A DNA stretch of 34,623 bases from an uncultured Ignavibacteriales bacterium (GCA_964611355.1 CAZSYD010000002.1:74409-109031); one strand, 5' to 3'. Shown: positions 2 through 21,821, numbered from the stretch's first letter. Notes: generated from the letters alone by a model not told the origin. Translations and numbers: made by a program.

Positions 2-601
2 CTGAATTTCCTTGTCTCTGCCGATGACCGGGTCAAACTCCCCGGCGGCCGCCTGATTGGTCAGGTCGATACAGTAACGCAGGGTGCCGGCCACCTTTTT
101 TTCGCCTTCGATAGCCTCCTCGCCAACCGATATACGGGTCGTGGGGGAGGTGATCTCTTCAACCGATTTACTCTCGGCTATGGCGCGATATATATCTTCT
201 TTTGTGATATCGATCTTATCTCGCAGGTACGGCGAAATCTGTGACTTGGGATCGAAGATGGCGATAAAGATATGTTCCGGCTCGACCAGGGCGTCATATA
301 GTTTGGCTTTCTCATCAATGGCCTGGGTAAAGACCTCCTGCATGGCCGGGGAGACGGTCAAATTTTCCCGCGCCGAGGATCGGCTGGATTGCCGCTTGAG
401 AAACTCTTCAACAACCGACTCGATAAAAACCGGGTTTTTGCCGAGCTGGTTTAGAATTGACTCGACTTTTGATCCCTCGTGCCGTACGGTGGCAATTAAA
501 AGATGCTCGATTTCGATCTCGGAATGTTTGAAACTTGCCGCGACTTCCCTGGCGCTTTTAATAACCGCCCGGGAGTCTGAAGAATAACTGGCTATATCCA
601 T
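2..601 (-). CDS. Clp/Hsp100 AAA+ ATPase, N-terminal part (ClpB/ClpC/ClpV-TssH family); runs off the left edge
   Basis: Not in the ORF track; translated by hand from ATG at 601: MDIASYSSDSRAVIKSAREVAASFKHSEIEIEHLLIA...EPEHIFIAI...LRYCIDLTNQAAAGEFDPVIGRDKEIQ. It has two Clp-N repeats (EHLL/EHIF) and the DLT...DPVIGR..EI start of AAA domain 1. The subfamily cannot be resolved. Confidence 0.9.
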   Translation of the reverse strand, partial: MDIASYSSDSRAVIKSAREVAASFKHSEIEIEHLLIATVRHEGSKVESILNQLGKNPVFIESVVEEFLKRQSSRSSARENLTVSPAMQEVFTQAIDEKAKLYDALVEPEHIFIAIFDPKSQISPYLRDKIDITKEDIYRAIAESKSVEEITSPTTRISVGEEAIEGEKKVAGTLRYCIDLTNQAAAGEFDPVIGRDKEIQ

Positions 602-641
602 ATTTGCCTGCCACGGTCCTTATTTGTCGTCATAACTCTTT

Positions 642-670
642 ATTGTAAACCCGCTTCTTACTATTGTCAA
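642..670 (-). promoter_or_regulatory. sigma70-type promoter for the Clp ATPase
   Basis: Minus strand TTGACA(670-665)-N17-TACAAT(647-642), about 40 nt upstream of the ATG at 601. Confidence 0.65.
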
Positions 671-824
671 GAGCTTTATTTTGGCCTCTTTTCGACTTCT
701 CCGATTCACTTTTTGTCAGCATCATTGATCGCCGTTTTTTCATATTTTTTTTTCGATTTTAAGCGCGCCTTACGGCAAAAGATAATCGTGTTTTCGATAT
801 ATAACTCATGCCGTAAGCTCGATT

Positions 825-1823
825 CTATTCTACCGGCGGCTCCGATGGAAATCCCTCGATGGTAAGATAGGGGGGGCGGGGGGTTTTCCAGGTAACCCCG
901 AATTGCTCCTCACAGAAAGCCTCAACACGGGCGTACCCACTGTCATCAGAAACGGCATTGTCATAAAGAAATGGCTTATCGGGAAAAACATAACTCAACG
1001 CAGCCATGATGTCTACCCTTACGGATCGCAGTGAAACCATTGGCATTTCTATAATGAGATTGGTGCGCATCTCGCCGGCAAGCGCATATAAGGCCGGCTG
1101 GGTACCTATAAACCCGAGATCGCGAGCCAGAGCTGCTTTCTGCTCCGGATTGGTTGTGCCGAGAAACTCCGTGATGAACTTTTGCTCCATTTTGGAATCG
1201 CCGAGAGCCGCTCCGGCGATGGACGTTTCTCTTATATCAATCCAGTCGGGAGATTGCATAAGTTCATTAATAAACGGCACTGCCTCCTGTGGTTTTGCCT
1301 TGGCGAGAACCAGCAACCCGGTTCCATCGGGCCATTGCTTGATATTTTCCGTTAGCGTGGCGCCGTGCTCCTTGAGCAGAGCCGATGGAACCGACCGGAG
1401 CAGCGCCTCAAGGGAATAGTCCCTGACTGTTCCCGGGCGGGCAAGCCCCGAATCTATCAGTATCGCCAGAATCGTCCGGTTCCGAATGATATTGCCGCCC
1501 TTGGAGTGTAACGGGTCTGTCTGTTTTCCAATCGCAACAAGTACTTTGACGAGCTGTTCTCTGACTGTTTCAGGTTCAGTGTGCAAAGCTTCTTTAAGCA
1601 ACTCCAGTGCTTTTGGATCGGGGTGCCCGTTGACCACGTATGCATCGACCGAACCCCGGAACTGTTCTCCCTGCCTGAATCGTTCGAGCTGTTTTGCTAT
1701 CTGTTCCAAACGCTGTACCTCCTCCTTTGATTTTTCCTGTCTAATGCATCCTGAATCTGTCAGAATAATAAGAGCGATGCACAGAAGGCCGATATATGTC
1801 GCGGCATATAAATGGCGTATCAT
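825..1823 (-). CDS. Exported, probably lipoprotein, alpha-helical (HEAT-like) protein; candidate immunity protein for the upstream metallopeptidase
   Basis: 332 aa. Hydrophobic N-terminus ends in DSG-C (lipobox-like), and the sequence has a helical repeat pattern. The start overlaps the upstream stop (ATGA, 1820-1823). The immunity role is inferred from position only. Confidence 0.6.
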   Translation of the reverse strand: MIRHLYAATYIGLLCIALIILTDSGCIRQEKSKEEVQRLEQIAKQLERFRQGEQFRGSVDAYVVNGHPDPKALELLKEALHTEPETVREQLVKVLVAIGKQTDPLHSKGGNIIRNRTILAILIDSGLARPGTVRDYSLEALLRSVPSALLKEHGATLTENIKQWPDGTGLLVLAKAKPQEAVPFINELMQSPDWIDIRETSIAGAALGDSKMEQKFITEFLGTTNPEQKAALARDLGFIGTQPALYALAGEMRTNLIIEMPMVSLRSVRVDIMAALSYVFPDKPFLYDNAVSDDSGYARVEAFCEEQFGVTWKTPRPPYLTIEGFPSEPPVE

Positions 1824-3286
1824 CGGCTAACCTTCTGCCACTGGTTTTCATTTCCACTTTCGTACTTTTTTGGCAATTCCTTGTATCGGATTTTAGTGTC
1901 CGTCCGTCCGATGGAATAATGCATAAGATTATTCGAAGAGTTAACATCCAGCCAATTCATGAGCGCGTGGCCGCATTCATGCCCCATGGTTTGCCGTACT
2001 TTGGCCTCGGTTTTACTTTGCTCGGCCACATAGATCGGGTTGCCGCTAAGACCGCTCAGCGGCCATATAAGACCTTCACTGGTTGTGTGTGCGTGAGTTA
2101 ACCCCGAACTGATAGTCACATTAGTTCCGGACTTGCTGGCAACAGTAATTGTCTCTTCATTGGCTCCGGTGCCGAGCTTATAAGAATTACCCGTTATGAT
2201 GTATCGCATGTAGCTGGTATAGGACGTTTTCAGATGAATGGTTGTATCTCCGACAGCGGCTGCAGTTTTGAGATAGAATATCCAGGCCAGGTCTTTGACA
2301 ATCACGATTTTTTGACCGCTCGGATTAAATGCGGCCCGAATAGCGCTCACTTCCTGCGACGTGGCTCCCGGCTCGATATCCAGTTTGCCGTTGCCATTCA
2401 AATCGTACTGGACATCAATGGCGACCCCGGTCGAGCTGTGGTCGGTCAGATTAATCGTCCCCACGGGTACTTTATACCAGGCGTTGATGGCCCTCTCGGC
2501 AGCTTCGACATCGAGGTTGGGGCGTGTAAGCGTTGTCCCGGATGACCTGCTGTCGTAAATTTTCGCCACGGTTGCCGTGACCGATTTTTCCTTGTACACG
2601 TTTACCTTCAGTCTGGCGCACACGGGCCCGGTATCTCTCGTGGCTCTGGCGAGGATATTTGTTTCATTTTTATCTTTCGCCTTCCCGTTTATCGTGAGAT
2701 CAAAAGCGGCTCCAGGGCCGGCTGGGGCCGTCGCCTCCGCGATTGACGTATCATCGCTGGTAAAACGAAGCGCGGTGCCAGTGGCTCCGCCGGTTATCGT
2801 CACCCGCACTGTCGTCGTGCCATTTTTCTTGACTGACGTGTGATGGTGTATGCCGGCGGCGTTATCCATGTTGTCATAGCCATAACTCTGGGTTGATGTT
2901 TCGGAAAAAACGACCCGAATAACGCTGAGCCGTGTCGTAACCGGCGGCAGGGCGCTTCTGCCGTCAGGCGTAAATATTAGTTGCACTTCTTCGGCATTGG
3001 CCGCCGGGCTGACATTCGTACGCCCGATAATCCGTACCGACTGGGCGTTTGCGTTTTCCAGCCTGATTCTGGTGCTGGACGTACTCCATAGATAACTACC
3101 CGAAGCATTGTCGCGATGTATCCCTTTCAATTCTATGCTCTCGGAAACCGGTACTACCGTATCCGGGTCGGATGTTCCATCGGAGGCTCGAATACGCACC
3201 GGATGGGGCGTCGTCCTGGTAACCACGGCCGCCCGGCCACTTGGTACCGAAGTTCCTTTAGGGGGGGGTGCAGATTCGCCGGTCAT
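1820..3286 (-). CDS. Putative Zn-metallopeptidase effector with Ig-like N-terminal domains
   Basis: 488 aa, no signal peptide, Thr/Ser-rich beta-strand N-terminal region. The C-terminal TMGHECGHALMNWLD...NNLM carries an HExxH motif plus a Met-turn-like motif. Confidence 0.65.
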   Translation of the reverse strand: MTGESAPPPKGTSVPSGRAAVVTRTTPHPVRIRASDGTSDPDTVVPVSESIELKGIHRDNASGSYLWSTSSTRIRLENANAQSVRIIGRTNVSPAANAEEVQLIFTPDGRSALPPVTTRLSVIRVVFSETSTQSYGYDNMDNAAGIHHHTSVKKNGTTTVRVTITGGATGTALRFTSDDTSIAEATAPAGPGAAFDLTINGKAKDKNETNILARATRDTGPVCARLKVNVYKEKSVTATVAKIYDSRSSGTTLTRPNLDVEAAERAINAWYKVPVGTINLTDHSSTGVAIDVQYDLNGNGKLDIEPGATSQEVSAIRAAFNPSGQKIVIVKDLAWIFYLKTAAAVGDTTIHLKTSYTSYMRYIITGNSYKLGTGANEETITVASKSGTNVTISSGLTHAHTTSEGLIWPLSGLSGNPIYVAEQSKTEAKVRQTMGHECGHALMNWLDVNSSNNLMHYSIGRTDTKIRYKELPKKYESGNENQWQKVSR

Positions 3287-4203
3287 TAGTCTCCTTTCTG
3301 ATCGCCTATGGAAAAATCCGCCTCGTCTTCAGAGTCGGGGAATTCGACGAAGACTTTTCCCGGAGGAATGTCCTCTTCTCGGGCCTGTCCATTATTATCC
3401 AGTTTCCCTTTTCTGGTATTGCCGTCTGGGAGGCGAAGAATATATTTTTCGTTGGGTATCGGATTACCTTGGCCGTCAATCAATTCAACATCAATCCAAT
3501 CCTTGAATAGAAGCAGTCCCGACTCCTGACCTCTGCCGAGCTCCAGATCGTCGAATTTGATGGTGAAAAAATATTCCGGCGGATTATAATGTCTTCCGTA
3601 CCGCTTAAGCTCTTCTTCGGTCGGGACTTCATCGGTATCTTCGTGATACTCGTATTCCCATTTAACTTCGACTTTACCGTCTTTAACAACCGCCGGAAGT
3701 TCGTTGATACGGTCGTGCGCTCCGTCCTGATCGTACTCGTGGATAATCAGCTTTACTTCGGTATAATCGCGAACCTCTTCCAATTCAGCCGACAGCGTAA
3801 CTATATCGCCTCTTCGAGCCTCGGGGGCGTTCCAGCCGATCTTTTTGATTTTCGGAACCGGCAGGACCGGAATTCTTTCCGATTTCCCTTCGAGATTGTT
3901 TTTTGGAAGTTTGACCTCGAAATAGATTTTATCGCCGATTTTGATATCTTCCGGAAGGTCAAACTCGCCGACGTACACATTGCTGTATATTTCGCCGCTT
4001 ACCTTGCCTAATTTTTCGCCTTCTTCGCTTTTGCCCTTGATCTTTATTTTGGCGCCGTTGCCGACCAGCGCCGTTTGTATATTAAAGCGGGTCTTTTGCC
4101 CGGCATAGGCGCATCCGGAGTTCCAGCAGGCGCTGATTAAATAGGAATCGAGTTCGATTTCGTGTTCTTCGTCGGTTCCCTTGTTAAATTTCAGCTCAGG
4201 CAT
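3286..4203 (-). CDS. PAAR-less paralog of the PAAR C-terminal extension (transthyretin/carboxypeptidase-regulatory-like domain); putative effector adaptor
   Basis: 305 aa. The C-terminal ~180 aa align visibly with residues ~213-381 of 7112..8272 (e.g. KDWIDVELIDGQGNPIPNEKYILRLPDG...GKLDNNG...IPPGKVFVEFP vs KDYIEITFKDEYGKPAKNAKYRVFLPNG...GTLDDNG...VPPGPWDVEFP). TAATG overlaps on both sides. Confidence 0.7.
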   Translation of the reverse strand: MPELKFNKGTDEEHEIELDSYLISACWNSGCAYAGQKTRFNIQTALVGNGAKIKIKGKSEEGEKLGKVSGEIYSNVYVGEFDLPEDIKIGDKIYFEVKLPKNNLEGKSERIPVLPVPKIKKIGWNAPEARRGDIVTLSAELEEVRDYTEVKLIIHEYDQDGAHDRINELPAVVKDGKVEVKWEYEYHEDTDEVPTEEELKRYGRHYNPPEYFFTIKFDDLELGRGQESGLLLFKDWIDVELIDGQGNPIPNEKYILRLPDGNTRKGKLDNNGQAREEDIPPGKVFVEFPDSEDEADFSIGDQKGD

Positions 4204-4661
4204 TACTCTTCTTCCAGGGGCTCATAGGTACCCGGCAGGATTGCCTCGATAGTGTCGCCAAGTTGCGTCCCGACCGTTTTGAGCGTCCTTTTTGAAAAAC
4301 CGGCCGAGAAAGTAAATCCCAGGTCATCTTTGATGACGAAAACGTATTTCATAAATGTGGCCTGCCCATCGCCCTGCGCCCATTTATAGACGAATTCATA
4401 GGCGGCGTTGCCGCCCTTGATCGTAACATCTTCGTCTTTGAGAACCTCGATGCTGTCCATGTTTGACGTAATCGGGTTGGTTTTCTCCCTTGCGAAGCTG
4501 ACGATATCCTTATGCTGCAGATGCCGGTCAACAACCAGCATCAGGCTGTGCCCGAGGCCGCCTTCTTCGGGCCCCCGGAATATATGAACGGTTTGATCCT
4601 CCCAGCCTTTGGGAAGGTCTATCCTGAATCTGTTTTGGCCGGACACGACATCTGTCTCCAT
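4203..4661 (-). CDS. DUF1795/DcrB-related (Eag-like) effector chaperone
   Basis: 152 aa. FRIDLPKGWEDQTVHIF...SLMLVVDR pattern and PsbP/Mog1-like layout typical of DUF1795; lies in a PAAR operon. Confidence 0.75.
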   Translation of the reverse strand: METDVVSGQNRFRIDLPKGWEDQTVHIFRGPEEGGLGHSLMLVVDRHLQHKDIVSFAREKTNPITSNMDSIEVLKDEDVTIKGGNAAYEFVYKWAQGDGQATFMKYVFVIKDDLGFTFSAGFSKRTLKTVGTQLGDTIEAILPGTYEPLEEE

Positions 4662-4683
4662 TGATTAAAATTGTCGTTTTCTG

Positions 4684-7107
4684 CTATTTATATTTCTCAA
4701 GGAATTTCCGATCCAAAAATTTCCGATCCCACCGGGAACCATCGCCGCCGAGATACGGTTGAAGTTTGACCAACTGGTAATTTTTCCAGTACCGCCACGC
4801 CAGTTTGACGTCTTTTTTCCCCGCTTCCGGCACGCACCCCGTAATTTCCCCCCGGCCAATACTGATCTGTACCGTCATATCCATGGCGACCGGTTTTAAT
4901 ATGACCCCCCTGTTAATCTCGACGTGCGGAACGCCCTCTTCCTTCTCGAGAGACGATCGAACCTGCGACTCCTCCTTGATGGCAAAAGGTCTTATGCCGT
5001 GGTAAACTTTACCCTTCCGGGCATAATTCAATTCGGCGATGGCGCAGATATTGAACTTGCGATATTTACGGGGAATGTAGTCGTCTTTCCTTATCTTTCG
5101 AGTAGTCGTGCTGTAGCCGGGGCCCTTGACGTCGCCGTAATCGGTTCTGACAACCTGGAAGGAAACCGGCACTCCAAGCCGGATATTGTCTTTGAAAATT
5201 ACCACTACCCGGACCGGAGTCTCGGTGTCGATTTCGTCGTCGTTGCCGAAATCGCTCCAATCGGAAACATCGGTGATATCGACGCCGTGCTTTTTGGTTC
5301 TATAGAAGCCGGCTGTCGCAAATTGCCAGAAAACGGCCTCGATCTGATCTTCATCGACACCGCCGTAATCGACCGACAGCCATTTGGCCAGTTCCACTAT
5401 ATCATCATGCTCGCTGTGATGGATTGGGAAATATCTATGGAAATTGACTTCCCACCAGTTGGAGAGATCATCGGGCTTCTTAAGGCTGATAACTTGGTCC
5501 CGGTTTTCCTGATCCTCTTCGAGGTGGTAGTACGTTACCCAGTTTTCCAGAAGGTATTCGTTCTTAACCCAGAATGGCCGCAGAATCAGATTGTCGATAT
5601 ATCCTTTAATGTCATATCCGCCGTCTTTGACTTTGGCAGTTACGTTTTTTTCGAAGTTATCTTCCGGCTCTTCGGGCGAGCCGCATTCGTCGATCAGTTC
5701 CAACAGACCGTATAGTACTTTGGACCGAAGCAGAAAGTCTGCGTACCGGGTGTGATACCATTCGTGAGCGACATCACGACCGATAAGGCGATGCTTGAGT
5801 TCATGCCAATTGGATACCTTGCAAAAAGTAAAATGCATGAACTCCTTGATTTCCCGCATGGTTGACGACCAGTACTGATCGACCTCGCTCTCATCGAGCG
5901 TTTCGAGCCCGGTTTTGACAACTTCGACCGCTTTACCCACATTCTCGGCGTTTTTACCGAGGGATGCCAGCCATCCGCCGGGAAAGGCAAAACCGATCAG
6001 AAGCGAGGAAACCGCCCAGGTAAACTCCACCCCGGCCATGAGGGCGTCGCCGCCTGCTTGATCGGAGGCCTGCTTGAGAATTTCCATCTGTTTCAACTCC
6101 GAACGGTTGAAGGTGGGATCATCGAACTGGCGGAAAATGCCGTTTTCCATATGATTTAAGTGACCCCGCATAAAATCGGTCAGAACTTCCAGCGATTTCT
6201 TTTCTTTCTGGGTAGCGTTATATAGATTGCCCGCTTTTTCGAAGCAATCCATTGCCTCAAATACCTTGCCTACCAACTCGACTGGCTTGGTGACCTTGTC
6301 GAATCCTTCCTGCCATTCCTTAAGGCCGAGCTTTGAGCAGGCGGCATCTTCGAGCGCATCGGGCAGGTCGGCCAGTTTTGCCTCTTCGATGGCATCCTGC
6401 ATTTTTTTGAAATTCGAAGTTCCCCAGACATCGCCGAAGATATCTTTGACGTTTTTAACCGCCTTGAAGTATTTATTGTCGAGCTTTATGGCGCTGAACA
6501 TGCCGGAAACGCCGTCATGGATCGATTTGAGTTGGTTGACGATCATTTTGAACTGGCCGACCGGCTCTTTGCTGTCCCGTGTAATTATTCCTTTGAGAAG
6601 CTGGAGGATATTATCGGCGTAAATATGGCTGAAATTATGCAGTAATGCTTCTTCGAGAGTATAGGCGTCGCCGATTAAAAACTCGAACTGGAAATGCTGT
6701 TTGGCGTCCTTTAGCAAAACCGGGCTGGCGGCTTCGGTGGTTTTTTTGGCGTCGATATTTTCAAATTGGAAATCGATGTTCACACGGTGGAAAATTTGCC
6801 CTAATTCGTTGCCGTCATACGGAACGGCGAGTACATACTGGCCGGGCTGGATAGTCCGCTGGGGAAAACCGCAGATCCACGAATCCTCGCCTTCCATTTT
6901 GCGGACAGGCTCTGATTCGTAAAGAGTTTCAAAGTAGCGGGTCCCCGATTCGTATTGGGGAACCGGATTCATCAGTTCGCAACGGCCTTTATAATGATCG
7001 CTGTGGAAAACGACAAAAACCAGACGGATCGTCTCCGGCGGGCGAGCCTCGATTATGCGACTCTGAGCTTTTAATCGACCCGCTTTTTTTCGTGTTTGAC
7101 CGGCCAC
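4684..7107 (-). CDS. Large hypothetical protein; candidate membrane-active effector
   Basis: 807-aa ORF (GTG start 4 nt after the PAAR stop; start uncertain), no signal peptide. A central helical region contains the Gly-rich hydrophobic segment AGGDALMAGVEFTWAVSSLLIGFAFPGGWLASLG. It lies between PAAR and DUF1795. Confidence 0.6.
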   Translation of the reverse strand: MAGQTRKKAGRLKAQSRIIEARPPETIRLVFVVFHSDHYKGRCELMNPVPQYESGTRYFETLYESEPVRKMEGEDSWICGFPQRTIQPGQYVLAVPYDGNELGQIFHRVNIDFQFENIDAKKTTEAASPVLLKDAKQHFQFEFLIGDAYTLEEALLHNFSHIYADNILQLLKGIITRDSKEPVGQFKMIVNQLKSIHDGVSGMFSAIKLDNKYFKAVKNVKDIFGDVWGTSNFKKMQDAIEEAKLADLPDALEDAACSKLGLKEWQEGFDKVTKPVELVGKVFEAMDCFEKAGNLYNATQKEKKSLEVLTDFMRGHLNHMENGIFRQFDDPTFNRSELKQMEILKQASDQAGGDALMAGVEFTWAVSSLLIGFAFPGGWLASLGKNAENVGKAVEVVKTGLETLDESEVDQYWSSTMREIKEFMHFTFCKVSNWHELKHRLIGRDVAHEWYHTRYADFLLRSKVLYGLLELIDECGSPEEPEDNFEKNVTAKVKDGGYDIKGYIDNLILRPFWVKNEYLLENWVTYYHLEEDQENRDQVISLKKPDDLSNWWEVNFHRYFPIHHSEHDDIVELAKWLSVDYGGVDEDQIEAVFWQFATAGFYRTKKHGVDITDVSDWSDFGNDDEIDTETPVRVVVIFKDNIRLGVPVSFQVVRTDYGDVKGPGYSTTTRKIRKDDYIPRKYRKFNICAIAELNYARKGKVYHGIRPFAIKEESQVRSSLEKEEGVPHVEINRGVILKPVAMDMTVQISIGRGEITGCVPEAGKKDVKLAWRYWKNYQLVKLQPYLGGDGSRWDRKFLDRKFLEKYK

Positions 7108-7111
7108 TCAA

Positions 7112-8272
7112 TCAAGCCCTTTTAAGATCGCTGTCGGATTCTGGGAATTCGACATCCCACGGGCCGGGCGGGACATTTTCGATTTTCGTGTAACCGTTGT
7201 CGTCAAGAGTTCCTTCCCTGATCTCGCCGTTAGGCAAAAATACCCGGTATTTGGCGTTTTTGGCCGGTTTGCCGTATTCATCTTTGAAGGTGATTTCAAT
7301 GTAGTCTTTGTATTCAAGAATGGCGGAGCGAGCCTGACAGGGGCCGACTTTAACCGTGAAGTAGAATTTGGGCGCATAGTATCGGTCAAGCTTATCCTGT
7401 ACCTTCCGGGCGTCTGCTTCTTCCTCCGGCCAATCGTATTGCCACTCGGCTTCGGCCTTGCCGCCGCTGAGTTCGATATCGCTCTTTGTGGCGATTTTTT
7501 TGTCAGCTTGGTTGATATCTCGCTCCCAGACTTCAAATTTTACTTTCTCGCCGTCATCGAATCCGACCGTTTCGATCTGCATTTTCACCTTTTCGCCGTT
7601 GCGTGCTTCCCGCGCCGACCAGGCCGCATTGGTGATAGTCCTCAAGGATATCTCGTGATCGCCTTCCTCAAGGCCGCCCTTTTTAATTTGCCCGGTGAGA
7701 GTCCCTTCCACCTGTTTATTATCCGGCGTTTTGATTGAGTATTTCAATCCGGTAATCGGCTTACCTCCCTTGTCCACGAATTTCGCATCAAGGTAATGCC
7801 CCTCTTTGGCTTCCACGGAAGTCGTTTCAGCTTTGACCTCGCCTTCCCCTCCGCTTCCGGAACCGCTCCCTCCGCCGCCGTTACCGATGAGAACATTGGG
7901 ACTGCCCATCATAATCTGGCCCTTGTTTGACGGCGGTTTTTGGAAAGGGCCGCCCTGTGGAATGTGGCTTGGAGTATTTGTGGCGGTGCTGTTTACCGTG
8001 GCTGCCGGTTGGCCCATGATTTTTACCGAAGAACTCAAACCTCCGTCGATTGTCCCCATAAACGGATGCGGAATCGGCGTCGGCACCGGCCCGCCCGGAG
8101 AAGGCACCATAATAATATGCGTATCAACCGCGATAATTTTGTCTCCCTGCTTGGCGGCAGGAAGGCCGTTTATCAAGACAGTACCGGTCGCCATCACCGT
8201 ACCGACCGGCAAATCGACCGGGTCATTGCAGGTAAGAGCCTTGTCTGTCGCTCTCGCAGCAGGTTTTCCCAT
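7112..8272 (-). CDS. PAAR-repeat spike-tip protein with C-terminal transthyretin-like extension
   Basis: 386 aa. Three PAAR motifs (KPAARATD, LPAAKQGD, QPAATVNS), candidate Zn ligands C15/H52/H69/H103, end motif GSPNVLIG, a GS linker, then two DxxGKP...Y....P...EGTL transthyretin-like repeats. Confidence 0.92.
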   Translation of the reverse strand: MGKPAARATDKALTCNDPVDLPVGTVMATGTVLINGLPAAKQGDKIIAVDTHIIMVPSPGGPVPTPIPHPFMGTIDGGLSSSVKIMGQPAATVNSTATNTPSHIPQGGPFQKPPSNKGQIMMGSPNVLIGNGGGGSGSGSGGEGEVKAETTSVEAKEGHYLDAKFVDKGGKPITGLKYSIKTPDNKQVEGTLTGQIKKGGLEEGDHEISLRTITNAAWSAREARNGEKVKMQIETVGFDDGEKVKFEVWERDINQADKKIATKSDIELSGGKAEAEWQYDWPEEEADARKVQDKLDRYYAPKFYFTVKVGPCQARSAILEYKDYIEITFKDEYGKPAKNAKYRVFLPNGEIREGTLDDNGYTKIENVPPGPWDVEFPESDSDLKRA

Positions 8273-8312
8273 ATCTCATCCAGAGGTTTAACAGATTTAT
8301 AATTCTTATCTT

Positions 8313-8341
8313 ATATTATATCGCCATATCAGCCAAGTCAA
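8313..8341 (-). promoter_or_regulatory. Putative sigma70 promoter of the PAAR operon
   Basis: Minus strand TTGACT(8341-8336)-N17-TAATAT (an overlapping TATAAT gives N15), in the AT-rich divergent intergenic region. Confidence 0.45.
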
Positions 8342-8459
8342 TAAATAGTTCACACACATTTATATACGCCAAAAAAGATAATCCTATGATTAAAAAAAAC
8401 TTGCGGTATGTTCCGGCGTTTCCATAGATTACATATCGTAACTTTTTGTGGAGCAATTG

Positions 8460-10259
8460 ATGCCCGACGACAATGATACCAAACCGTCAGGTGAATACGA
8501 ATCGCCGAAAGGTCCCGACCCGCTGGGAATAATCGGCTGGTCTATCGGCGGAAAATACAAGATTACCTCCTATATCGGCGGAGGCGGTTTTGGCGAAGTC
8601 TATGCCGGGTATAACGAAAATCTCACCGCACAACGTCTCGTAATCAAGTTTTTCAAGCGCGTTCAGGAGCGCGAGAAATTCGATAAAGAAGCCAAAATAC
8701 TCTGCCTGCTGGATCACCCCAATATTTCCCGGGTTATCGATTACCTGCCCGACGAAGGCGCTGTGGTCGTCGCCCTTATTGACGGTAAAGACGGCAAGCG
8801 TATCCTTAAAGAATCGGGAGCGCTGGTGGAGAAGATGTTCCTTAATGTCGCCCGATCATTAACCGACGCCATGGCCTATGCGCACAGCAGGAAGATCGCC
8901 CACCGCGATATCAAGCCGGACAATATCATTGTTGACAAGAATGATCACGTCTATATAATCGATTTCGGCATAGCCAAGGAGATGGGCGGCGAGGCCACTC
9001 GAACCGGTTATCAGGCGCTGACGCCGATGATTGCGGCTCCCGAACGGCAGCAGGGAGGACGGGATTATAACCCCTTCATAAGCGACATCTACGAAATCGG
9101 CGTTACCCTTTTTAACTTTGCCACCAATTCCCTGCCTTATCGCAATCCGGTCAATCCGAACGTCTCGGAATGGGGTGGCGAGGTGGCCGAGAAGCTTTCG
9201 CCGGAACTGAGAGTGATTCTTAGGAAAGCGACGCATCCCGACCCAAAGAGAAGGTATCAGACGGCCGCTGAGATGGCCGGGGAATTCAAAAACCTGACTC
9301 GCGTTTATGGCGGTCGTAAAGCCCGCAAACGGCCTGCCCTGACAGTGGCGGCCGTAATCATTGTGATAGCGGCTGTCGGGATTTTTTTAGGTCGGCATCA
9401 ATTGAGCGGCTTATGGCGGGATTTGTTACCCACGAAACAGGTGTCGAGCAAGGTCAGGTCGGAAGCCGAAAAGCCAAAGGAACCTGAAAAACTATCCCTG
9501 AAAGATACCGTTTCCGTTGAAAAGGTGGAGCCGCCCGAGGAAAAGGCTGTCGTGGAAAAAGTAAAAGAAAAGCCAAAGCCAAAAGCGACGGTCGAAACGC
9601 AGAAACCGGCCGCCAAAGAAGAGATAACAACCGCCGAAAAGACACCGGCGGAAGAAAAGAAGGAAATTGTAAAGCAACCTGAGAAGGAAAAGCAGATACC
9701 CCCGCCGCCTCCACCAATGTCAAAAATGCTGATTCAGGTCATCCCCGACAAAGATATCTCGATGTGGGTTGACGCTACCCATAGGCAATCCGGTCAGTCG
9801 TTCAAGATCAAACCGGGGCGGCATGAACTGACCATTGTTCATCCAGATTACCCGGTCTATCGGAAGAAGGTCAGCGTAGGAGATGATCCGGCTGACGTGA
9901 GGGTTGATTTTGAGAAGGAATTCGCCGCCGCCGGTTCTGTAGGTATTCAGTTGGCTCTCTCTCCGCCATCGGATAATCATATGCTTGAGTTATTACTGAA
10001 TGGCCGCAAGAAGACCATAACCCGCTTTCCTGTCTTTGGTATGGAGAAATTGGCCGGTGAGTGGCAGGTTGAGTTAGACCTGATACCGATTGATCCTTCG
10101 TCAAAGAGCAGTGCTCAGGTAGATTCCTGCGTTACCTTTCCGTACGGCGGGGGTTCGCGTTTTGTGCTCAAGGGTGGCAAAGGGATAATAAGAATGCAGT
10201 CCGACCGGGGAGAAAAATTAACCTCGGTTCCCGTGGTGATATTCTGGTCGGATAAATAG
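8460..10259 (+). CDS. Membrane-anchored Hanks-type Ser/Thr protein kinase with periplasmic PEGA-like domain
   Basis: GGGGFGEVY, VIK, HRDIKPDN, DFG, AAPE and SDIYEIG motifs. TM segment LTVAAVIIVIAAVGIFLG, a K/E/P-rich linker, polyPro, then a beta domain. ATG 8460 is preceded by GGAG (the ORF track starts at GTG 8448). Confidence 0.9.
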   Translation: MPDDNDTKPSGEYESPKGPDPLGIIGWSIGGKYKITSYIGGGGFGEVYAGYNENLTAQRLVIKFFKRVQEREKFDKEAKILCLLDHPNISRVIDYLPDEGAVVVALIDGKDGKRILKESGALVEKMFLNVARSLTDAMAYAHSRKIAHRDIKPDNIIVDKNDHVYIIDFGIAKEMGGEATRTGYQALTPMIAAPERQQGGRDYNPFISDIYEIGVTLFNFATNSLPYRNPVNPNVSEWGGEVAEKLSPELRVILRKATHPDPKRRYQTAAEMAGEFKNLTRVYGGRKARKRPALTVAAVIIVIAAVGIFLGRHQLSGLWRDLLPTKQVSSKVRSEAEKPKEPEKLSLKDTVSVEKVEPPEEKAVVEKVKEKPKPKATVETQKPAAKEEITTAEKTPAEEKKEIVKQPEKEKQIPPPPPPMSKMLIQVIPDKDISMWVDATHRQSGQSFKIKPGRHELTIVHPDYPVYRKKVSVGDDPADVRVDFEKEFAAAGSVGIQLALSPPSDNHMLELLLNGRKKTITRFPVFGMEKLAGEWQVELDLIPIDPSSKSSAQVDSCVTFPYGGGSRFVLKGGKGIIRMQSDRGEKLTSVPVVIFWSDK

Positions 10260-10279
10260 ATTTATGTAAAGGAGGTCTC

Positions 10280-10981
10280 ATGCAAAGAAACAACCTCATT
10301 TTTCGGGCCGCGGCGGTTATGCTGCTGACCTGTTTTATGCAGTTTGCGGTGTTGCCGGCCACTTCGTTTGCCCAGACGCCCGAATGTACTTATGATCGCA
10401 GCAGCCCGACTCTGGAAAGCGCCAGGATAAGCTTCAAATCGCTCAACTATTACTGCGCGGAAAAGGAGATCGAAGATTTCCTCAAACTGGAAACAATCGG
10501 TATCGAACAGAGAGCGGACGCTCATGTGCTCCTGGCCGCGGTCTATTACGCCAAGGTCAAGAACCAGAGCGAAAAGCGTAGTCGCGTGGTCGAACAGTTC
10601 AAGCAGGCTTTCAGGGCTTTTCGCGAATGGCGCGGCGAACTGGATATCAGCTCCACTGAGTTTATCGGCATGATGAATGAAGCTCAGGCCCAGGTTGACC
10701 GGGAACTGAAGGAACTGGAGGAACAGGAAGAGGCAAAGACAGAAGCTATCGAACCTCAGGCACCTGCCGAGCAGGAGCCTGAACCTGCCTATGTTGCCGA
10801 GGAAGTACCGTCTGAAAAAGAAGGAAAAGCCTGGTACAAGCAATGGTGGGCGATAGGTCTTGGCGTGGGGCTGGTGGCCGGTGTCGTGGTTATTGCCGCA
10901 GGAGGCGGAGATGATGACGGCGGCGGTACGGTGAATGAACCGTTGCCGAACTTCCCCGACACTCCTTCAAAGAAAAAGTAG
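10280..10981 (+). CDS. Exported TPR-like helical protein with C-terminal membrane segment
   Basis: 233 aa, AAGGAGG RBS, signal peptide ending SFA-Q, a TPR-like helical pair and C-terminal KAWYKQWWAIGLGVGLVAGVVVIAAGGG. Confidence 0.65.
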   Translation: MQRNNLIFRAAAVMLLTCFMQFAVLPATSFAQTPECTYDRSSPTLESARISFKSLNYYCAEKEIEDFLKLETIGIEQRADAHVLLAAVYYAKVKNQSEKRSRVVEQFKQAFRAFREWRGELDISSTEFIGMMNEAQAQVDRELKELEEQEEAKTEAIEPQAPAEQEPEPAYVAEEVPSEKEGKAWYKQWWAIGLGVGLVAGVVVIAAGGGDDDGGGTVNEPLPNFPDTPSKKK

Positions 10982-11061
10982 GTGTCCGGGACAGGCCTTT
11001 GACAGGGGCTAAATACAGGATGAAAGGTAAAGTAAAAATAAATCCCGAAAGGAGCATTAGG

Positions 11062-12081
11062 ATGAAAAATAGTGTTAACGTAACGCTTTTGTTTGCGCTG
11101 GCAATATTACTGGTGATGGCTATGAGTGCCGCCGCGCAGGCGCCCAACTCAATAATTTACCAGGGACGGTTGACCGATGCCGACGGCAATGCCATCACTG
11201 ATTCGACCGACGTCAAGTTTGAAATATTCGCGGCCCTGACCGGCGGCAGCAATATCTACAACATCACCCAAAAAGTCGGGCCGGATGGTAACGGCGTTTT
11301 CACGGTTGAGCTGACCGGCGTCACCTCCACGGTTCTGAATGGATCAAAGCGTTATCTTCAGTTGACGGTGGGAACGGATGTTTTAAGCCCCCGTCAGCTT
11401 CTGACTTCCGCGCCGTATGCCTATTCCGCTGAGTATGCCGACAATATTCCAGATAATTCGGTAACAACTTCAAAAATCGCCGCCAGCGGGGTGACCAACA
11501 GCGATATTGCAAGCAACGCCGTTACAGGCGCAAAGGTTTCCAATGGTAGTCTTACTGACGCTGATATTCTCGACGAGCCGGGGTTGGCGTTCAATGCATC
11601 CGAACCGGGAAATACATATCGAAACATGCCGTCATTGACAGAACCGATAGACTCAATAACGATTACGGTGCCGGCTGCCGGGTACATTTATGTTTGGGCT
11701 CACGCCACCTTCAGGATTTCTCATACGAATGGGATTAAGGATGAAGTCCATCTTCAGGTTTCGCCGGTTCGCGGAATTATAGACTATGGTGATTTCGGCT
11801 TTGGCTTCGTCGTCTTGCCGAACGTGGTTGCGACAGGAGATTATATCTATCCGGTCAATGTTCACAGGGCCTTTTATGTTAGTTCATCCGGGGCCTATAA
11901 ATATTATGCGAATAGCAGGATGTTCTCTGGTGCCGACGCCGATGATGATTTTTTTAATCTTCAGATAACGGCTTTTTATTTTCCGACTGCATACGGAACG
12001 GTTGATCAGCCAACCAAAAGCAGTGGCGGGAATGACAATCTATTGCCCACCGGGGTAGCAAGCCCTGATGAGGACAAATAG
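11062..12081 (+). CDS. Exported fibre-like protein (YQGRL N-terminal domain, 10-residue VTxxKIA repeats)
   Basis: ATG 11062 after AAGGAG. Signal peptide AAA-Q; APNSIIYQGRLTDADG...RQLLTSAPYA domain; repeats SVTTSKIAAS/GVTNSDIASN/AVTGAKVSNG/SLTDADI; C-terminal beta head. Confidence 0.65.
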   Translation: MKNSVNVTLLFALAILLVMAMSAAAQAPNSIIYQGRLTDADGNAITDSTDVKFEIFAALTGGSNIYNITQKVGPDGNGVFTVELTGVTSTVLNGSKRYLQLTVGTDVLSPRQLLTSAPYAYSAEYADNIPDNSVTTSKIAASGVTNSDIASNAVTGAKVSNGSLTDADILDEPGLAFNASEPGNTYRNMPSLTEPIDSITITVPAAGYIYVWAHATFRISHTNGIKDEVHLQVSPVRGIIDYGDFGFGFVVLPNVVATGDYIYPVNVHRAFYVSSSGAYKYYANSRMFSGADADDDFFNLQITAFYFPTAYGTVDQPTKSSGGNDNLLPTGVASPDEDK

Positions 12082-12167: not shown

Positions 12168-14042
12168 ATGATATTAAATAGATTCATTCCACCTGTTTTG
12201 GCATTGGTCCTGATGTTCTGTTTCGGCATTGCTTCCGCACAGATGTCGGGTTCCGGCAATGCCATAACGGCCGGAGGTCCGGTCGGCGGCGGCGGATCGT
12301 CATCTTCGTCGAATTATGCCGTTGCGGGCGCAGTACCTCTGATGGGAACAGGAGTATCTGCCGGCAGTTCATATGCTATTGCCGGCGGTGCGGCCGCTTT
12401 GTATTCCGGCGTCGCCGCGTTCATGGCTACTTACGCTGGCAGTGCCGTCGATACGGTTACGGTCGTCAACCGTACATTGCAGGTTGCCTTCAGCGGCGGT
12501 GAGGGCACGGCCTCGGGAACGATTTATTATCGTCAGGGTGGAGCCACCATATATCAATCAGCCGCCATGACCGCCGGTACGGATGATACCCTGGAATACG
12601 GTCTCTCATCCGGCCTTTTGACGGTGCGCGGTTTGGAGTTTTACTTCGTAATCACTCGCGGCACGTCTTCGACCAATGAAGGAAGTGCTTCTTCGCCGTA
12701 TATTTTTGTCACCAGCCTTGACAATAACCAGGGTCAGAGGCCGTCGGCCATGCCGGATGCCCAGTACCGGATTGTCGGCTTGCCGGTAGATCCTTCGTCC
12801 GGTTCGGTGACGGCCGTTTTCCCCGATGATCTTGGCTCCCCTGATCCGGTGCAATGGCGGCTGGGCAGCTATAGTCCTTCGCTTGATTCTGTTATAGAAT
12901 ATCCCAACGCCGCCTCTGTTGCGCCCGGCCGGGGATACTGGCTGATTGCGCGCGGCAGTAAGAAGTACGGCTCCGCCGGAACGTCCATACGACCGAACCG
13001 ATCCTATGGCGGGAACGATTATTACGAGCTCGCTCTTGATTCTGGCTGGAACCAGCTTGCCAACCCGCTGCCGTTTGACGTTTCGTGGTCGGATATATTA
13101 TTTGACGATGACGGGAGCGTATTGACCGATCATCCTGTCCTGGTTCTGGATGACTCCGCTTACTATTATAATGGTTCGGCCTATCAGACCGTTCAGACCA
13201 TAAATGCCTGGGAAGGCGTTTTTGTGCTAATCAAGAAACAAAACGTCAAGGCTCTTGTGCCGTACCATGAAGGTAGCAAAGGACCGGTCAAACCGCTAAA
13301 ACGGCTGGCGGAAAACCCCTCGTTTGACAATTGGAGTGTCCACCTCCGGCTGGAAGCAAACGGCCTGACAGATGACGGCAACGTCATCGGCGTGCGCGAA
13401 GACGCCTTACGCGGCGCGGATAGATATGACTTCGCCGAACCGCCCCCCGCGCCGGGTGCGCCGCGTCTGGCGTTTCGACTGCCGGGAGAGGCGACCTATC
13501 CCCGCCGGACGGATTATCGACCGCCTTATGCGGACGGCGCCACCTGGGATATTGAGTTCTCAAAGGTTCCGGGGCGGTCTCTTACCGCTGTCGGCCTTGA
13601 TCAAGTGCCGGAGGGAATGGAAACCTGGCTTTTCCTTGACGCCGCCGCCGCTATCCGGCTCACCGAAGGCAATGAGGTAAGATTGCCTGATAATGTAACG
13701 ACGGCGCGGTTGATTATCAGCAATAAAGAATATTTGTCCGATGAAGCCCATCTGACGCTTCCCCTTGAATATGCTTTGAACCAGAACTATCCCAATCCGT
13801 TCAATGCCGGAACCAGCATACGCTTTGCCGTCAGAGAACCCGGATACGTCAGCCTCGCGGTTTACAACGTAATCGGCCAGAGGATCAGATCACTGGTCGG
13901 CGGCGAGATGGGAGCCGGTGAATATACCGTCACATGGAACGGCAGCGAAGATGACGGCAGCGAGGTTGCCAGCGGTATATATTTCTATCGAATGTCAGCC
14001 GGCGATTTTGTCCAATGCCGGAAGATGATTCTGCTTAAGTAG
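12168..14042 (+). CDS. Exported protein with FlgD-Ig / T9SS type-A-like C-terminal sorting domain
   Basis: 624 aa, signal peptide ASA-Q, Gly/Ser-rich N-terminal motif, and C-terminal YALNQNYPNPFN...VASGIYFYRM...RKMILLK. Confidence 0.8.
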   Translation: MILNRFIPPVLALVLMFCFGIASAQMSGSGNAITAGGPVGGGGSSSSSNYAVAGAVPLMGTGVSAGSSYAIAGGAAALYSGVAAFMATYAGSAVDTVTVVNRTLQVAFSGGEGTASGTIYYRQGGATIYQSAAMTAGTDDTLEYGLSSGLLTVRGLEFYFVITRGTSSTNEGSASSPYIFVTSLDNNQGQRPSAMPDAQYRIVGLPVDPSSGSVTAVFPDDLGSPDPVQWRLGSYSPSLDSVIEYPNAASVAPGRGYWLIARGSKKYGSAGTSIRPNRSYGGNDYYELALDSGWNQLANPLPFDVSWSDILFDDDGSVLTDHPVLVLDDSAYYYNGSAYQTVQTINAWEGVFVLIKKQNVKALVPYHEGSKGPVKPLKRLAENPSFDNWSVHLRLEANGLTDDGNVIGVREDALRGADRYDFAEPPPAPGAPRLAFRLPGEATYPRRTDYRPPYADGATWDIEFSKVPGRSLTAVGLDQVPEGMETWLFLDAAAAIRLTEGNEVRLPDNVTTARLIISNKEYLSDEAHLTLPLEYALNQNYPNPFNAGTSIRFAVREPGYVSLAVYNVIGQRIRSLVGGEMGAGEYTVTWNGSEDDGSEVASGIYFYRMSAGDFVQCRKMILLK

Positions 14043-14984: not shown

Positions 14985-16772
14985 ATGAATAGGATTGCGG
15001 TCATCCGGGGGATATTGTGCGGGTTAATATGTTTGGTATTCCTGTGCAGCGTCGCCCTGGCTGACATGAACGAGACCGTTGCTTATCAGGGGAATAAAGC
15101 TCGTATAGTAGTCGGCAAGATCAAGGACAAGGCCCACGATTGTTCATGGGAAATGGCCCAGGCGGTCGGCGAAATGCTTTCCACCGCCCTGACCAACAGC
15201 GGCCGATTTATTGTCCTTGCCAGTCAGGAAGAAGTTGACGAACTGATCGAAGAAATCGATTTCGGGCAGTCCGGTTACGCCGAAGAGGGAAGAGGTCCGG
15301 ACAAGGGTTTGATGGAAGGGGCCGACATCCTGGTTACCGGCGCCGTTACCGGTTTTGAACCGAATGCGGGCGGCACCGGCGGCGGACTGGGCGGTCTCAA
15401 GAAGAAAGCGTTCGGCGCCTTTGGAGCAAAGAAGAAAAGCGCCAAGATACTGTTGGATATCAAACTGGTTGATATCCGCACCCGCCGGATCATCAAGGCC
15501 TTATCCCTTGAAGGGAAATCAACGAGTTGGAAAGTCGGCGGCATCGGCGGCGGATGGACCAAGGATATTGCGCTTGTTGGAGCATTGGGAACGTATTCCA
15601 ACGAACCGATGGAAAAGGCGGTCAGAAACCTGCTGGCCAAAACGACTGAAAAAATATCGAAAGAAGTTCCCGACGAGTACTTCAGGTACAAGGGCGGCGG
15701 ACAATATACAACGGAATACGCCACACCGGGGGCCGCTTCTTCAACCGGTCAACCGGCCGCGGCGTCGCCGGCTGTCTCCGGCGCATCTGCCGTTCCCGCG
15801 GCTCCGGTTGCCGAGGATATGACTCTTTACACGAAATATGATTTTGTCCCCGGTAACAGGGTTATTTTCTACGATGATATGAGAAATGAAGAAGAAGCGG
15901 AGTTTCCATATCGCTGGAATCTTGACCGAGGTGTCTTCGAGGTTGTCCGGTTCGGCAATGAGTTCTGGATTATGTGCACCAATATTGGTTCCGTGCGACC
16001 GAAAATGCCCGATGGTCCTTTGCCCCTGAAATACACCGTGGAACTGGAGTATTACGATAATGGCCCTGACAAAAGCGGCAATCATTTCCGCATTTACTGG
16101 GTGAATAGTGATGGCCGAAATATCGGGTACCTTAGGTTACGTGGTAACGGCAGGACCTCACTGGAAATTCTCGGGAAGATCCTGGCTGATAAAACTCTGC
16201 CCCAAATACCCGGAAGGGGCGTCCATACCCTGCGAATTATGGCCACCGATCGCTCGATAAAGTGCTTCGTTGACAGGGAACGGGTGGCCAACGTGCCCAG
16301 GGTCGAAAACTTCAATCCGGTCGGTTTTCGTATACAAGCCGATCCTTATAGCGATCCCGATAACCCGGCCCTATTCCGGGGTTTCCGCTTTGCCGAAGGC
16401 GGTAAATCTATGCGGCAGCAGCTTGATGAAGACGGCATAATCGTCACGCACGGCATCCTTTTCGATCCGGATTCTTACGTGATTAAAGGCGAATCGTATA
16501 AGACCCTGAAAGAGATCGGGCAACTGTTGCAGGATGATGCCCAACTTCGCCTTTCAATAGAAGGCCATACCGACAGCGACGGTTCCGATGACCATAACCT
16601 GACCCTTTCGCAGAGCCGGGCAAAGTCGGTGCGGGATTATCTTATCTCAACCTATGGTATCGCCGCCGATCGTCTTGAATCCAAAGGCTGGGGTGAATCT
16701 AAGCCGATCGATGCCAATGATACCGCAGAAGGAAAAGCCAACAATCGCCGGGTAGAACTGGTCAAGCTATAG
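14985..16772 (+). CDS. CsgG/HfaB-like domain fused to OmpA-family peptidoglycan-binding domain
   Basis: Signal peptide; EMLSTALTNSGRFIVL...GADILVTGAVTGFE...DIKLVDIRT (CsgG-like); YDFVPG middle domain; IEGHTDSDG...LSQSRAKSV...GWGESKP...NRRVE (OmpA_C). Confidence 0.85.
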   Translation: MNRIAVIRGILCGLICLVFLCSVALADMNETVAYQGNKARIVVGKIKDKAHDCSWEMAQAVGEMLSTALTNSGRFIVLASQEEVDELIEEIDFGQSGYAEEGRGPDKGLMEGADILVTGAVTGFEPNAGGTGGGLGGLKKKAFGAFGAKKKSAKILLDIKLVDIRTRRIIKALSLEGKSTSWKVGGIGGGWTKDIALVGALGTYSNEPMEKAVRNLLAKTTEKISKEVPDEYFRYKGGGQYTTEYATPGAASSTGQPAAASPAVSGASAVPAAPVAEDMTLYTKYDFVPGNRVIFYDDMRNEEEAEFPYRWNLDRGVFEVVRFGNEFWIMCTNIGSVRPKMPDGPLPLKYTVELEYYDNGPDKSGNHFRIYWVNSDGRNIGYLRLRGNGRTSLEILGKILADKTLPQIPGRGVHTLRIMATDRSIKCFVDRERVANVPRVENFNPVGFRIQADPYSDPDNPALFRGFRFAEGGKSMRQQLDEDGIIVTHGILFDPDSYVIKGESYKTLKEIGQLLQDDAQLRLSIEGHTDSDGSDDHNLTLSQSRAKSVRDYLISTYGIAADRLESKGWGESKPIDANDTAEGKANNRRVELVKL

Positions 16773-17927: not shown

Positions 17928-17938
17928 ACTACACCTGT

Positions 17939-19024: not shown

Positions 19025-19274
19025 TTTCTCCCCGGTCATCCGCGCCGGATTCGGTGATGCTTCTTAAATCCTCGAATACCTTTTGAGCCTCCTGCTCATC
19101 GATCACGCCGATGGCAAAACCGGCATGCACCAGCACCCAGTCGTTGACACCGACCTCGGGGACAAGCGCCAGATTGATCTCACGCAGCAAGCCGCCGAAA
19201 TCAACCCTGCCCACCCGGGTTAGAGGATCATCGCCGGTAATGGTTTTGATATTTCCCGGAACTGCAATGCACAT
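19011..19274 (-). CDS. hypC: Hydrogenase chaperone HypC/HupF
   Basis: Starts MCIAVPG (ATG 19274); contains VDFGG and [10 protein letters not shown]. Confidence 0.96.
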
Positions 19275-19278
19275 TATA

Positions 19279-21588: not shown

Positions 21589-21821
21589 TTCTTTAGCTGG
21601 TTTTCTCAAGCCGGATTCTCCCGTGCAGGGCAATATTTCTACCCCTTGGCTATAGTTATAATTTTCAAGAAAGGATAATAAAATCATCCTTCAGAGACAA
21701 GCCCCCTGCCTCCGAAAAGCCGGTATCGGGTAACTATTCATATATGGGAAATACGGGCAGGTTTTATAATTTGTGGTAAGAACTGTTTTTTTTGAACCAA
21801 ATCTAATTCGAGATAAATAAG

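Follow-up and report, generated by a model that had tools for sequence, protein, structure and literature searches.

Effector loading in type VI secretion systems (T6SS) is known from Proteobacteria and, lately, from gut Bacteroides. In Bacteroides fragilis GA3 the variable region combines a PAAR protein, an adaptor and co-secreted effectors, as described in passages of two reports (PMC13699834, PMC13402684). Passages of further reports state that the T6SS-iii subtype occurs only in Bacteroidota (PMC10781749, PMC13584744) and that it has a TssN/O/P/Q/R membrane complex (PMC10781749). Elsewhere, transthyretin-like (TTR) domains of VgrG recruit Tle cargo and the C-terminal metallopeptidase of VgrG2b is a T6SS effector, both according to passages of PMC7376260. 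The window considered here is a whole stretch of 34,623 nucleotides (nt) from an uncultured Ignavibacteriales bacterium (GCA_964611355.1 CAZSYD010000002.1:74409-109031), and its subject is a six-gene operon encoding a PAAR protein with a C-terminal extension (PAAR-ext), the putative cargo protein E807, an Eag/DUF1795-family protein, A305 (a PAAR-less paralog of the PAAR extension), the HExxH protein Zn488 and a HEAT-repeat lipoprotein. These six genes are probably the effector-loading region that heads a complete single-copy T6SS, with PAAR-ext and A305 each loading one of two cargo slots. More tentatively, and short of an even call, A305 could form a class of its own among secreted T6SS toxin carriers, next to Hcp, VgrG and PAAR: a spike-riding, PAAR-less duplicate of a spike extension that would bring a fused (AHH) toxin or an effector encoded behind it, in a T6SS-iii-like machine outside Bacteroidota with a different, as yet undescribed membrane anchor.

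The window forms the end of a 109-kb contig, of which it takes up the last 34.6 kb, and the genome is 96% complete. An earlier annotation made from the sequence alone (the first-pass annotation) had read the operon as part of a contractile injection system, and the flanking contig bears this out: a full T6SS cluster adjoins it, with ClpV, TssB, TssC, Hcp, VgrG and TssE/F/G/K directly downstream on the same strand. The first structural gene, a split ClpV, starts 223 nt downstream of the operon, the cluster lies in the 20 kb before the window, and VgrG, TssB/C and Hcp are located 6-12 kb downstream, on the same strand. That the window itself holds no structural genes is correct apart from the start of ClpV, since the minus-strand open reading frame (ORF) 601-2 encodes the Clp_N domain and runs off the window. 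Whole-genome scans found PAAR, VgrG, Hcp and Eag genes in a single copy each; together with the complete cluster, these single copies mark the six genes as the head of one complete T6SS locus.

PAAR and VgrG-like proteins are also present in extracellular contractile injection systems (eCIS) and phage tails, and to that extent the operon might be assigned to an eCIS or a prophage tail instead. Such an assignment is extremely improbable, as the neighbouring cluster matches ClpV, TssB/TssC, Hcp and TssE/F/G/K, and Pfam and NCBIfam scans returned no phage family beyond those common to VgrG and sheath; it was rejected on gene content. Where the first-pass annotation allowed a T6SS or eCIS spike, only the T6SS part survives.

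By its TssC and Hcp models, the locus is a T6SS of the T6SS-iii kind (TssC, PF17541, E 9.7e-72; Hcp, PF17642, E 9.4e-21), and these two models match none of 14 control genomes. Of 41 relatives, 28 have TssC of the iii type, among them every one of the 13 that belong to the same family. Related loci are assigned to Candidatus Zixiibacteriota, in agreement with the lineage first guessed from the sequence, and the host Zixibacterium falls outside the Bacteroidota range stated for T6SS-iii. Pfam and NCBIfam scans gave no matches to TssJ/L/M in the T6SS cluster, and the three genes after TssK (307, 734 and 176 amino acids (aa); L001:5598-9306, minus strand) had no Pfam/NCBIfam match at E<=0.001, the TssN-R models not being among those searched. 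The terms 'Zixibacteria' and 'type VI secretion' co-occur in no title or abstract of the literature searched, which holds only single passing mentions.

Set beside V2/locus II of B. fragilis GA3 (BtapC/Ate3; BtpeA/BtaeB or Bte3; 9JG8, 9JDH, 8GRA), the locus has in common a sheath and tube matching PF17541 and PF17642, and a PAAR-headed variable region in which accessory genes and effector-immunity pairs stand beside the structural genes. Weaker resemblances concern single proteins: BtaeB entries come first, though weakly, among the fold matches of E807, and residues 222-272 of PAAR-ext resemble the C-terminal part of the B. fragilis PAAR protein (8gra_J, E 0.14). The two differ in phylum and in their accessories, which are Eag/DUF1795 and A305 here and not an 11-strand open barrel, as BtapC/Ate3 is described in a passage of PMC13402684.

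The two-slot arrangement emerges from the comparison of 20 related loci, which were ORF-mapped, and 78 further loci. Across the 20, PAAR-ext comes first and is followed by one or two variable genes; Eag and A305 come next, then a further one to three variable genes, and after these ClpV(N+D1), ClpV(D2), TssB, TssC, Hcp and VgrG. PAAR-ext is present in 18 of the 20 loci and Eag and A305 in 19 each, with Eag directly upstream of A305 in 18, i.e. in every locus having both. The 78 further loci contain 72 full-length A305 genes, 50 of them with Eag immediately upstream, and in 36 of these 50 Eag-A305 loci ClpV follows within four genes. Two cargo modules on one spike had been proposed from the single sequence, and both sets of loci do hold two variable slots, one behind PAAR-ext and one behind its PAAR-less paralog. 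The 39 genes of slot 1 fall into 8 families and the 63 genes behind A305 into 32, three families occurring in both slots. For the Pfam scan, 45 slot proteins were taken, roughly one or two from each sequence cluster of the 66 listed together with three neighbours, and 19 of the 45 have Pfam domains. Effector-type domains include PG_binding_1 with VanY, PG_binding_1 with Amidase_2, Zn-dependent phospholipase C, Metallophos and OmpA-like, and partner domains include HEAT, PQQ/beta-propeller, pentapeptide and FG-GAP repeats. With such predicted domains, the slot contents look like polymorphic effector-immunity pairs directed against the cell envelope.

The ClpV/TssH gene of this cluster is split in two with an ATGA overlap, one part coding for the N domain and D1 (483 aa) and the other for D2 (365 aa) (window 2-601 and L001:18056-19998, both minus strand). 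The split is common to all 20 related loci mapped; a few of the 78 further loci have a single ORF of about 820-870 aa.

The first slot is headed by PAAR-ext, whose PAAR assignment is secure (PF05488, E 1.1e-9, 38.8 bits vs a cut-off of 27). The protein comprises the PAAR domain (about residues 1-130), a Gly/Ser linker (about 131-145) and predicted C-terminal beta-sandwich and prealbumin/TTR-like domains, with weak SpaA (20.8 bits, cut-off 23.1) and CarboxypepD_reg (15.3 bits) matches at 326-376, both below cut-off. It would cap the single VgrG trimer, and its extension would hold the slot-1 cargo E807. Similar arrangements are the TTR extensions of enteroaggregative Escherichia coli VgrG1-Tle1 and Pseudomonas aeruginosa VgrG2a/2b-Tle4/Tle3, where, as predicted here, a prealbumin-like end of a spike protein stands right upstream of a cargo gene. 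Within the present comparison, a VgrG of locus L115 has this domain at its end, and an E807 relative is encoded downstream of it. Unlike those systems, the present one also has a free-standing, conserved PAAR-less protein with its own slot, and toxin fusions.

This free-standing protein is A305. The paralogy with the PAAR extension that had been proposed for it is confirmed by alignment of PAAR-ext 213-382 with A305 119-294 (33% identity over 178 residues, E 2e-26). A305 is about 300 aa long and belongs to no Pfam or NCBIfam family; it appears to be made up of two beta-sandwich domains and one prealbumin-like domain, with an acidic tail. As a profile, its C-terminal domain matches the Bap repeat 7dm0 (E 5e-5) and also the EMC7 beta-sandwich, and a Protein Atlas search returned only unnamed Zixibacteria/Ignavibacteriota clusters and prealbumin-like clusters. 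The protein occurs in 87 of 121 genomes of the order, with identity up to 69%. Of 40 relatives searched for both TssC and A305, the 27 with TssC all have A305 and the 13 without TssC all lack it.

Such conservation and such exact co-occurrence with TssC would suit an invariable component of structure or assembly, for instance an accessory of the spike, baseplate or cap, that neither selects nor carries cargo, the cargo being loaded by other means, for example via Hcp, VgrG or the PAAR extension. The movement of cargo families between slot 1 and slot 2 and the lack of co-variation between A305 and the cargo family downstream fit this too. Identity between A305 proteins is 56.4% for loci sharing a slot-2 family (13 pairs) and 55.6% for loci not sharing one (483 pairs), and for PAAR-ext the values are 48.0% for loci sharing a cargo family vs 44.2% otherwise, a small effect; the pairs are not independent and the figures are compared with no statistical test. 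A purely structural A305 is nevertheless judged quite unlikely, because three kinds of arrangement recur that are hallmarks of Hcp/VgrG/PAAR-type carriers: orphans, tandems and fusions. First, 16 of the 72 copies are orphans situated away from any Eag, ClpV or PAAR gene, and 14 of these 16 are followed by a same-strand gene of 257-1502 aa. The A305-plus-cargo island of locus L089, for example, lies away from T6SS genes and adjoins a housekeeping kinase/pyrophosphorylase gene. Conversely, T6SS locus L034 has no A305, and its genome holds a copy elsewhere. Second, tandem A305 copies, each with its own downstream gene, are seen in L024, L082, L089 and L107. Third, in L089, L095 and L107 an AHH nuclease (PF14412, E 2e-15 to 5e-12, 46-57 bits vs a cut-off of 22.3) is joined to a full-length A305, which accounts for three of the five long A305 proteins scanned. 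A 737-aa fusion in L026 carries a 447-residue tail without relatives among the loci compared, and three slot-2 proteins start with their own copy of the A305 C-terminal domain.

Because of its orphan copies, tandem copies and toxin fusions, A305 looks like a carrier and not merely a fixed part, and as far as gene arrangement tells it seems to behave as a toxin carrier. A305 would then itself be secreted, riding with the spike, and would tether the slot-2 toxin or, in some genomes, be fused to it. Given that A305 and its cargo do not co-vary, recognition, if A305 is a carrier, would be generic or would involve a small surface. Several points weigh against the carrier proposal. A305 is among the best-conserved genes of the locus, and its conservation and absent co-variation are as compatible with a fixed role in the structure as with a generic carrier. 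It has no PAAR domain by which it would attach to the spike. No A305 fusions of 670-2000 aa were found in a large protein collection, which is weak evidence.

The A305-AHH genes themselves (L089:8998-10410, L095:8998-10380, L107:6207-7619) are in each case followed by a family-less protein of 795-798 aa, after which L089 and L107 have a second A305 copy. No small immunity gene was identified behind the fusions in L089, L095 or L107. A long open frame in G035, considered as a further fusion, was rejected, as it has only a long acidic tail and belongs to a canonical locus.

In its organization the A305 module is comparable to the RIX class of effectors and secreted adaptors, as that class is described in PMC10435454: in both, the module is either fused to a toxin (AHH here) or stands alone right upstream of unrelated cargo whose delivery it may assist. 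No sequence relation was seen between the two, and A305, at about 300 aa with three beta domains, derives from a PAAR extension and belongs to a Zixibacteria machine of the T6SS-iii type and not to Vibrionaceae.

In the second slot of the present locus, sequence and structural model suggest that Zn488 is likely a peptidase effector acting in the periplasm and that the HEAT lipoprotein is likely its immunity partner. The HExxH motif first noticed by eye is HECGH at residues 436-440, in which H436, E437 and H440 are invariant in 32 aligned relatives; within the motif stretch, HECGHALMNWLD, D447 and M455 are invariant in the 32 sequences as well. The family has 41 members in a large protein collection, counting Zn488 itself. 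Its AlphaFold2 model (mean confidence, pLDDT, 91.6) has a disordered N-terminus, two immunoglobulin (Ig)-like domains at about 28-232 and a peptidase-like domain at 231-488 with an inserted Ig-like domain at 334-409. Residues 231-488 match archaemetzincin 2x7m (VIA-align Z 11.4, 157 aligned, root mean square deviation (rmsd) 3.6) and adamalysin 1dth (Z 11.3), and further matches include ADAM17, ADAM8, ulilysin and fragilysin (Z 8.3-11.3). In a Foldseek search against the PDB, Ig-domain matches dominate, and the peptidase fold is found only in the wide VIA-align search.

Zn488 thus shares with the metzincins (archaemetzincin, adamalysin/ADAM, ulilysin, fragilysin) a fold at Z 8.3-11.4 over about 150 residues, an HExxH motif, a downstream Asp and a conserved Met. 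It differs from them by the Ig-like insert in the catalytic domain and the two N-terminal Ig-like domains, and there is no sequence match: the Zn488 profile found no solved peptidase among PDB sequences and Zn488 has no Pfam family. The metzincin motif is HExxHxxGxxH/D followed by a Met-turn. Compared with it, Zn488 lacks the Gly at +3, and its Asp (the third zinc ligand) stands one residue further from HExxH, the latter being a point against a metzincin-like effector. Some relatives have LysM, OmpA or PEGA additions at the N-terminus, and two (P0003, P0004) have prealbumin-like N-termini, that of P0003 showing no similarity to A305. Kinship of Zn488 to a PG_binding_1 effector with a HEAT partner was considered; at an hhalign probability of 15%, the two are treated as unrelated.

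Zn488 has no signal peptide. The protein encoded by the overlapping downstream gene was correctly called a lipoprotein, with a hydrophobic N-terminal stretch ending at Cys26 that recurs in five of five homologues inspected, and its HEAT_2 match has E 2.5e-8. A lipoprotein homologue follows the Zn488 homologue in three (L016, L046, L062) of the five other loci having one, the exceptions being L032 and L075, and in L027 and L028 it is a PG_binding_1 effector that has a HEAT protein behind it. In the proposed scheme, Zn488 would act as a metzincin-like zinc peptidase in the periplasm or cell envelope of the target, and the producer would be shielded by the HEAT-repeat lipoprotein. In common with the VgrG2b metallopeptidase/metzincin group, the immunity-like partner of Zn488 is predicted to face the periplasm.

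The cargo of slot 1, E807, is less readily classified, having no Pfam or NCBIfam family. From its sequence and model we read it as cargo carried on the spike, with the function of a membrane-active toxin or of a structural co-effector. The AlphaFold2 model (pLDDT 72.5) shows a beta-sandwich at 26-145, a long helical region and a conserved C-terminal beta domain at about 550-710. In a hydropathy scan, a hairpin at 355-383 stands out as strongly hydrophobic, and apart from the lipoprotein no other product of the operon has such a segment. A full HMMER search of 1.84 billion representatives found 29 homologous proteins at E<=1e-3, counting E807 itself, 11 of them at E<=1e-30. A word-based homologue search returned only E807, and the Protein Atlas gave no usable match. 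No Pfam domain was present in any of 27 relatives scanned, save OmpA in three distant ones. The family profile matches one of 285 genomes of the phylum, its own, and only E807 itself in the 20 related loci, and E807 is a singleton among the slot-1 genes; this distribution marks E807 as a rare acquisition. Two metagenome contigs have E807 relatives near VgrG genes: in L118 the relative is one gene behind a complete VgrG, and in L115 it stands behind the C-terminal part of a VgrG, the tail of which shares 46% identity over 57 aa with the C-terminal domain of a PAAR extension.

E807 might be not primarily a toxin but a structural co-effector required for building the cargo complex of the spike, a role reported for BtaeB/Bfe7 and Bte3 of B. 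fragilis. Of 48,161 chains, the two that match its model best are indeed the BtaeB N-terminal domain (9jdh, Z 8.6, 118 residues, rmsd 3.4) and BtpeA-BtaeB-BtapC (9jg8_C, Z 8.0), and a passage of PMC13402684 reports that loss of bfe5/bfe7 abolishes T6SS function in B. fragilis. Such a role would explain why E807 has no adjacent immunity gene, none being obvious behind its relatives in L115 and L118 either. On the other hand, these Z scores are barely above generic matches, exceeding those of beta-sandwiches by only 0.7; Foldseek found nothing at E<=0.001, and the E807 profile has no meaningful sequence similarity to PDB chains. Presence in one of 285 genomes also means that the family is no essential part of the machine of this lineage, and a primarily structural E807 is considered unlikely. 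The absence of an adjacent immunity gene and of a recognisable catalytic motif, as far as the operon ORFs and Pfam tell, also counts against E807 as a toxin cargo.

In the metagenome contig L113 (93-97% identical to the window), a sequencing error or a broken copy divides the E807 gene between two ORFs of 285 and 521 aa (L113:38-2460); the same Eag gene comes next.

The Eag family binds effector transmembrane helices, and its cognate effectors carry a prePAAR motif with N-terminal transmembrane helices. Membership of the third gene is well founded, with a match to PF08786 (DcrB) at E 2.1e-10 and 41.2 bits vs a cut-off of 27.2, and direct matches to EagT6 (6xrf, E 3e-4, residues 14-110) and PA0094 (1tu1, E 3e-4); no signal peptide was found. 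It had been annotated as the chaperone or immunity gene of one module, and this did not hold, because a gene that is fixed in the locus whatever the cargo is neither an immunity gene nor a one-module chaperone. Its client could be E807 here, cargo in general, or A305, and in this operon it may shield the hydrophobic hairpin of E807.

A narrower version of that role, in which Eag is a dedicated E807 chaperone shielding the hairpin and genes one to three form a closed module, as first annotated, draws on the ligand preference of the family, on the hairpin being the sole strong hydrophobic segment, and on the two genes staying adjacent in the near-identical contig L113. It is nonetheless somewhat unlikely: the slot-1 families next to it are unrelated, yet Eag itself is conserved at 35-56% identity, a hydrophobic segment is present in only 3 of 19 slot-1 proteins, and wherever Eag and A305 both occur Eag is directly upstream of A305. 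Even for Eag as a general accessory of cargo loading there are difficulties, in that it is kept in about 10 of 21 loci without a hydrophobic segment in the slot proteins scanned, and the PAAR protein has no prePAAR-type transmembrane segment, nor any hydrophobic segment in a hydropathy scan. Compared with the EagT6-Tse6 type chaperones of Proteobacteria, the Eag protein here shares the Pfam family, a direct EagT6 match, a cytoplasmic location and a PAAR-headed effector operon. The differences are a PAAR protein without transmembrane segment and with a contiguous PAAR domain, where the familiar rule would call for prePAAR, and a gene that is kept whatever the cargo and usually stands right before A305.

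The genes of the operon and its flanks are listed in Table 1. The six co-oriented, close-packed genes were confirmed as minus-strand ORFs (8272-825), and their junctions are as first described: a 4-nt gap, a 22-nt gap, TAATG, TAATG and ATGA. The long GTG-started form of E807 is backed by relatives P0047 and P0043, which align from residues 1-4. Contigs from four public metagenome runs cover positions 600-8500 without indels or joints and bridge all gene junctions, which means that the operon is no assembly chimera. Among the 24 runs listed, none offers RNA data for the operon.

Table 1. Positions in the window of the operon genes, the adjoining ClpV start and promoter-like matches
Feature	Position	Strand	Remark
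PAAR-ext, PAAR spike-tip protein, 386 aa	8272-7112	-	heads cargo slot 1
E807, slot-1 cargo protein, 807 aa, GTG start	7107-4684	-	no Pfam/NCBIfam family
Eag/DUF1795-family protein, 152 aa	4661-4203	-	PF08786 above cut-off; conserved accessory or chaperone
A305, PAAR-less paralog of PAAR extension, 305 aa	4203-3286	-	heads cargo slot 2
Zn488, HExxH protein, predicted slot-2 effector, 488 aa	3286-1820	-	metzincin-like fold in model
HEAT-repeat lipoprotein, 332 aa	1823-825	-	HEAT_2 above cut-off; likely immunity protein (predicted)
ClpV/TssH start (N domain), continues off window	601-2	-	Clp_N E 1.8e-12
Sigma-70-like promoter match, in 223-nt gap between lipoprotein gene and clpV	642..670	-	TTGACA-17-TACAAT, 11/12, consensus match only
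Weaker promoter-like match upstream of PAAR gene	8313..8341	-	TTGACT-17-TAATAT, 9/12, consensus match only

Divergent from the PAAR gene, positions 8448-12081 (plus strand) encode a Ser/Thr protein kinase (603 aa) followed by family-less proteins of 233 and 360 aa. Homologues of all three adjoin the PAAR gene in at least 10 other loci, and the three genes may be a T6SS regulatory module. C-terminal sorting domains of type IX secretion (Por_Secre_tail/CHU_C) are found further along the window in three proteins (12168-14042, 22148-22912 and 22994-26323), two of which have cohesin domains as well. A 595-aa fusion of CsgG-like and OmpA domains is encoded at 14985-16772 (plus strand), and two more CsgG-like/TPR proteins are found just past the T6SS cluster (L001:1040-3511, plus strand). 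Hydrogenase maturation genes, for a HypE-like AIR-synthase-family protein, HypD and HypF, occupy 16872-21687 (minus strand).

The logic of effector loading seen here is already known. What is new is the lineage, the combination of a T6SS-iii-type machine with Eag, and A305 as a PAAR-less, duplicable putative carrier that can be fused to toxins. An uncultured sediment phylum is seen to bear a T6SS-iii-like weapon widely. The fixed two-slot frame provides a handle for mining new antibacterial toxins and immunity proteins, most of the 32 families behind A305 (63 cases) being without a Pfam domain, and A305 itself offers a testable case of new carriers arising by duplication of a spike extension.

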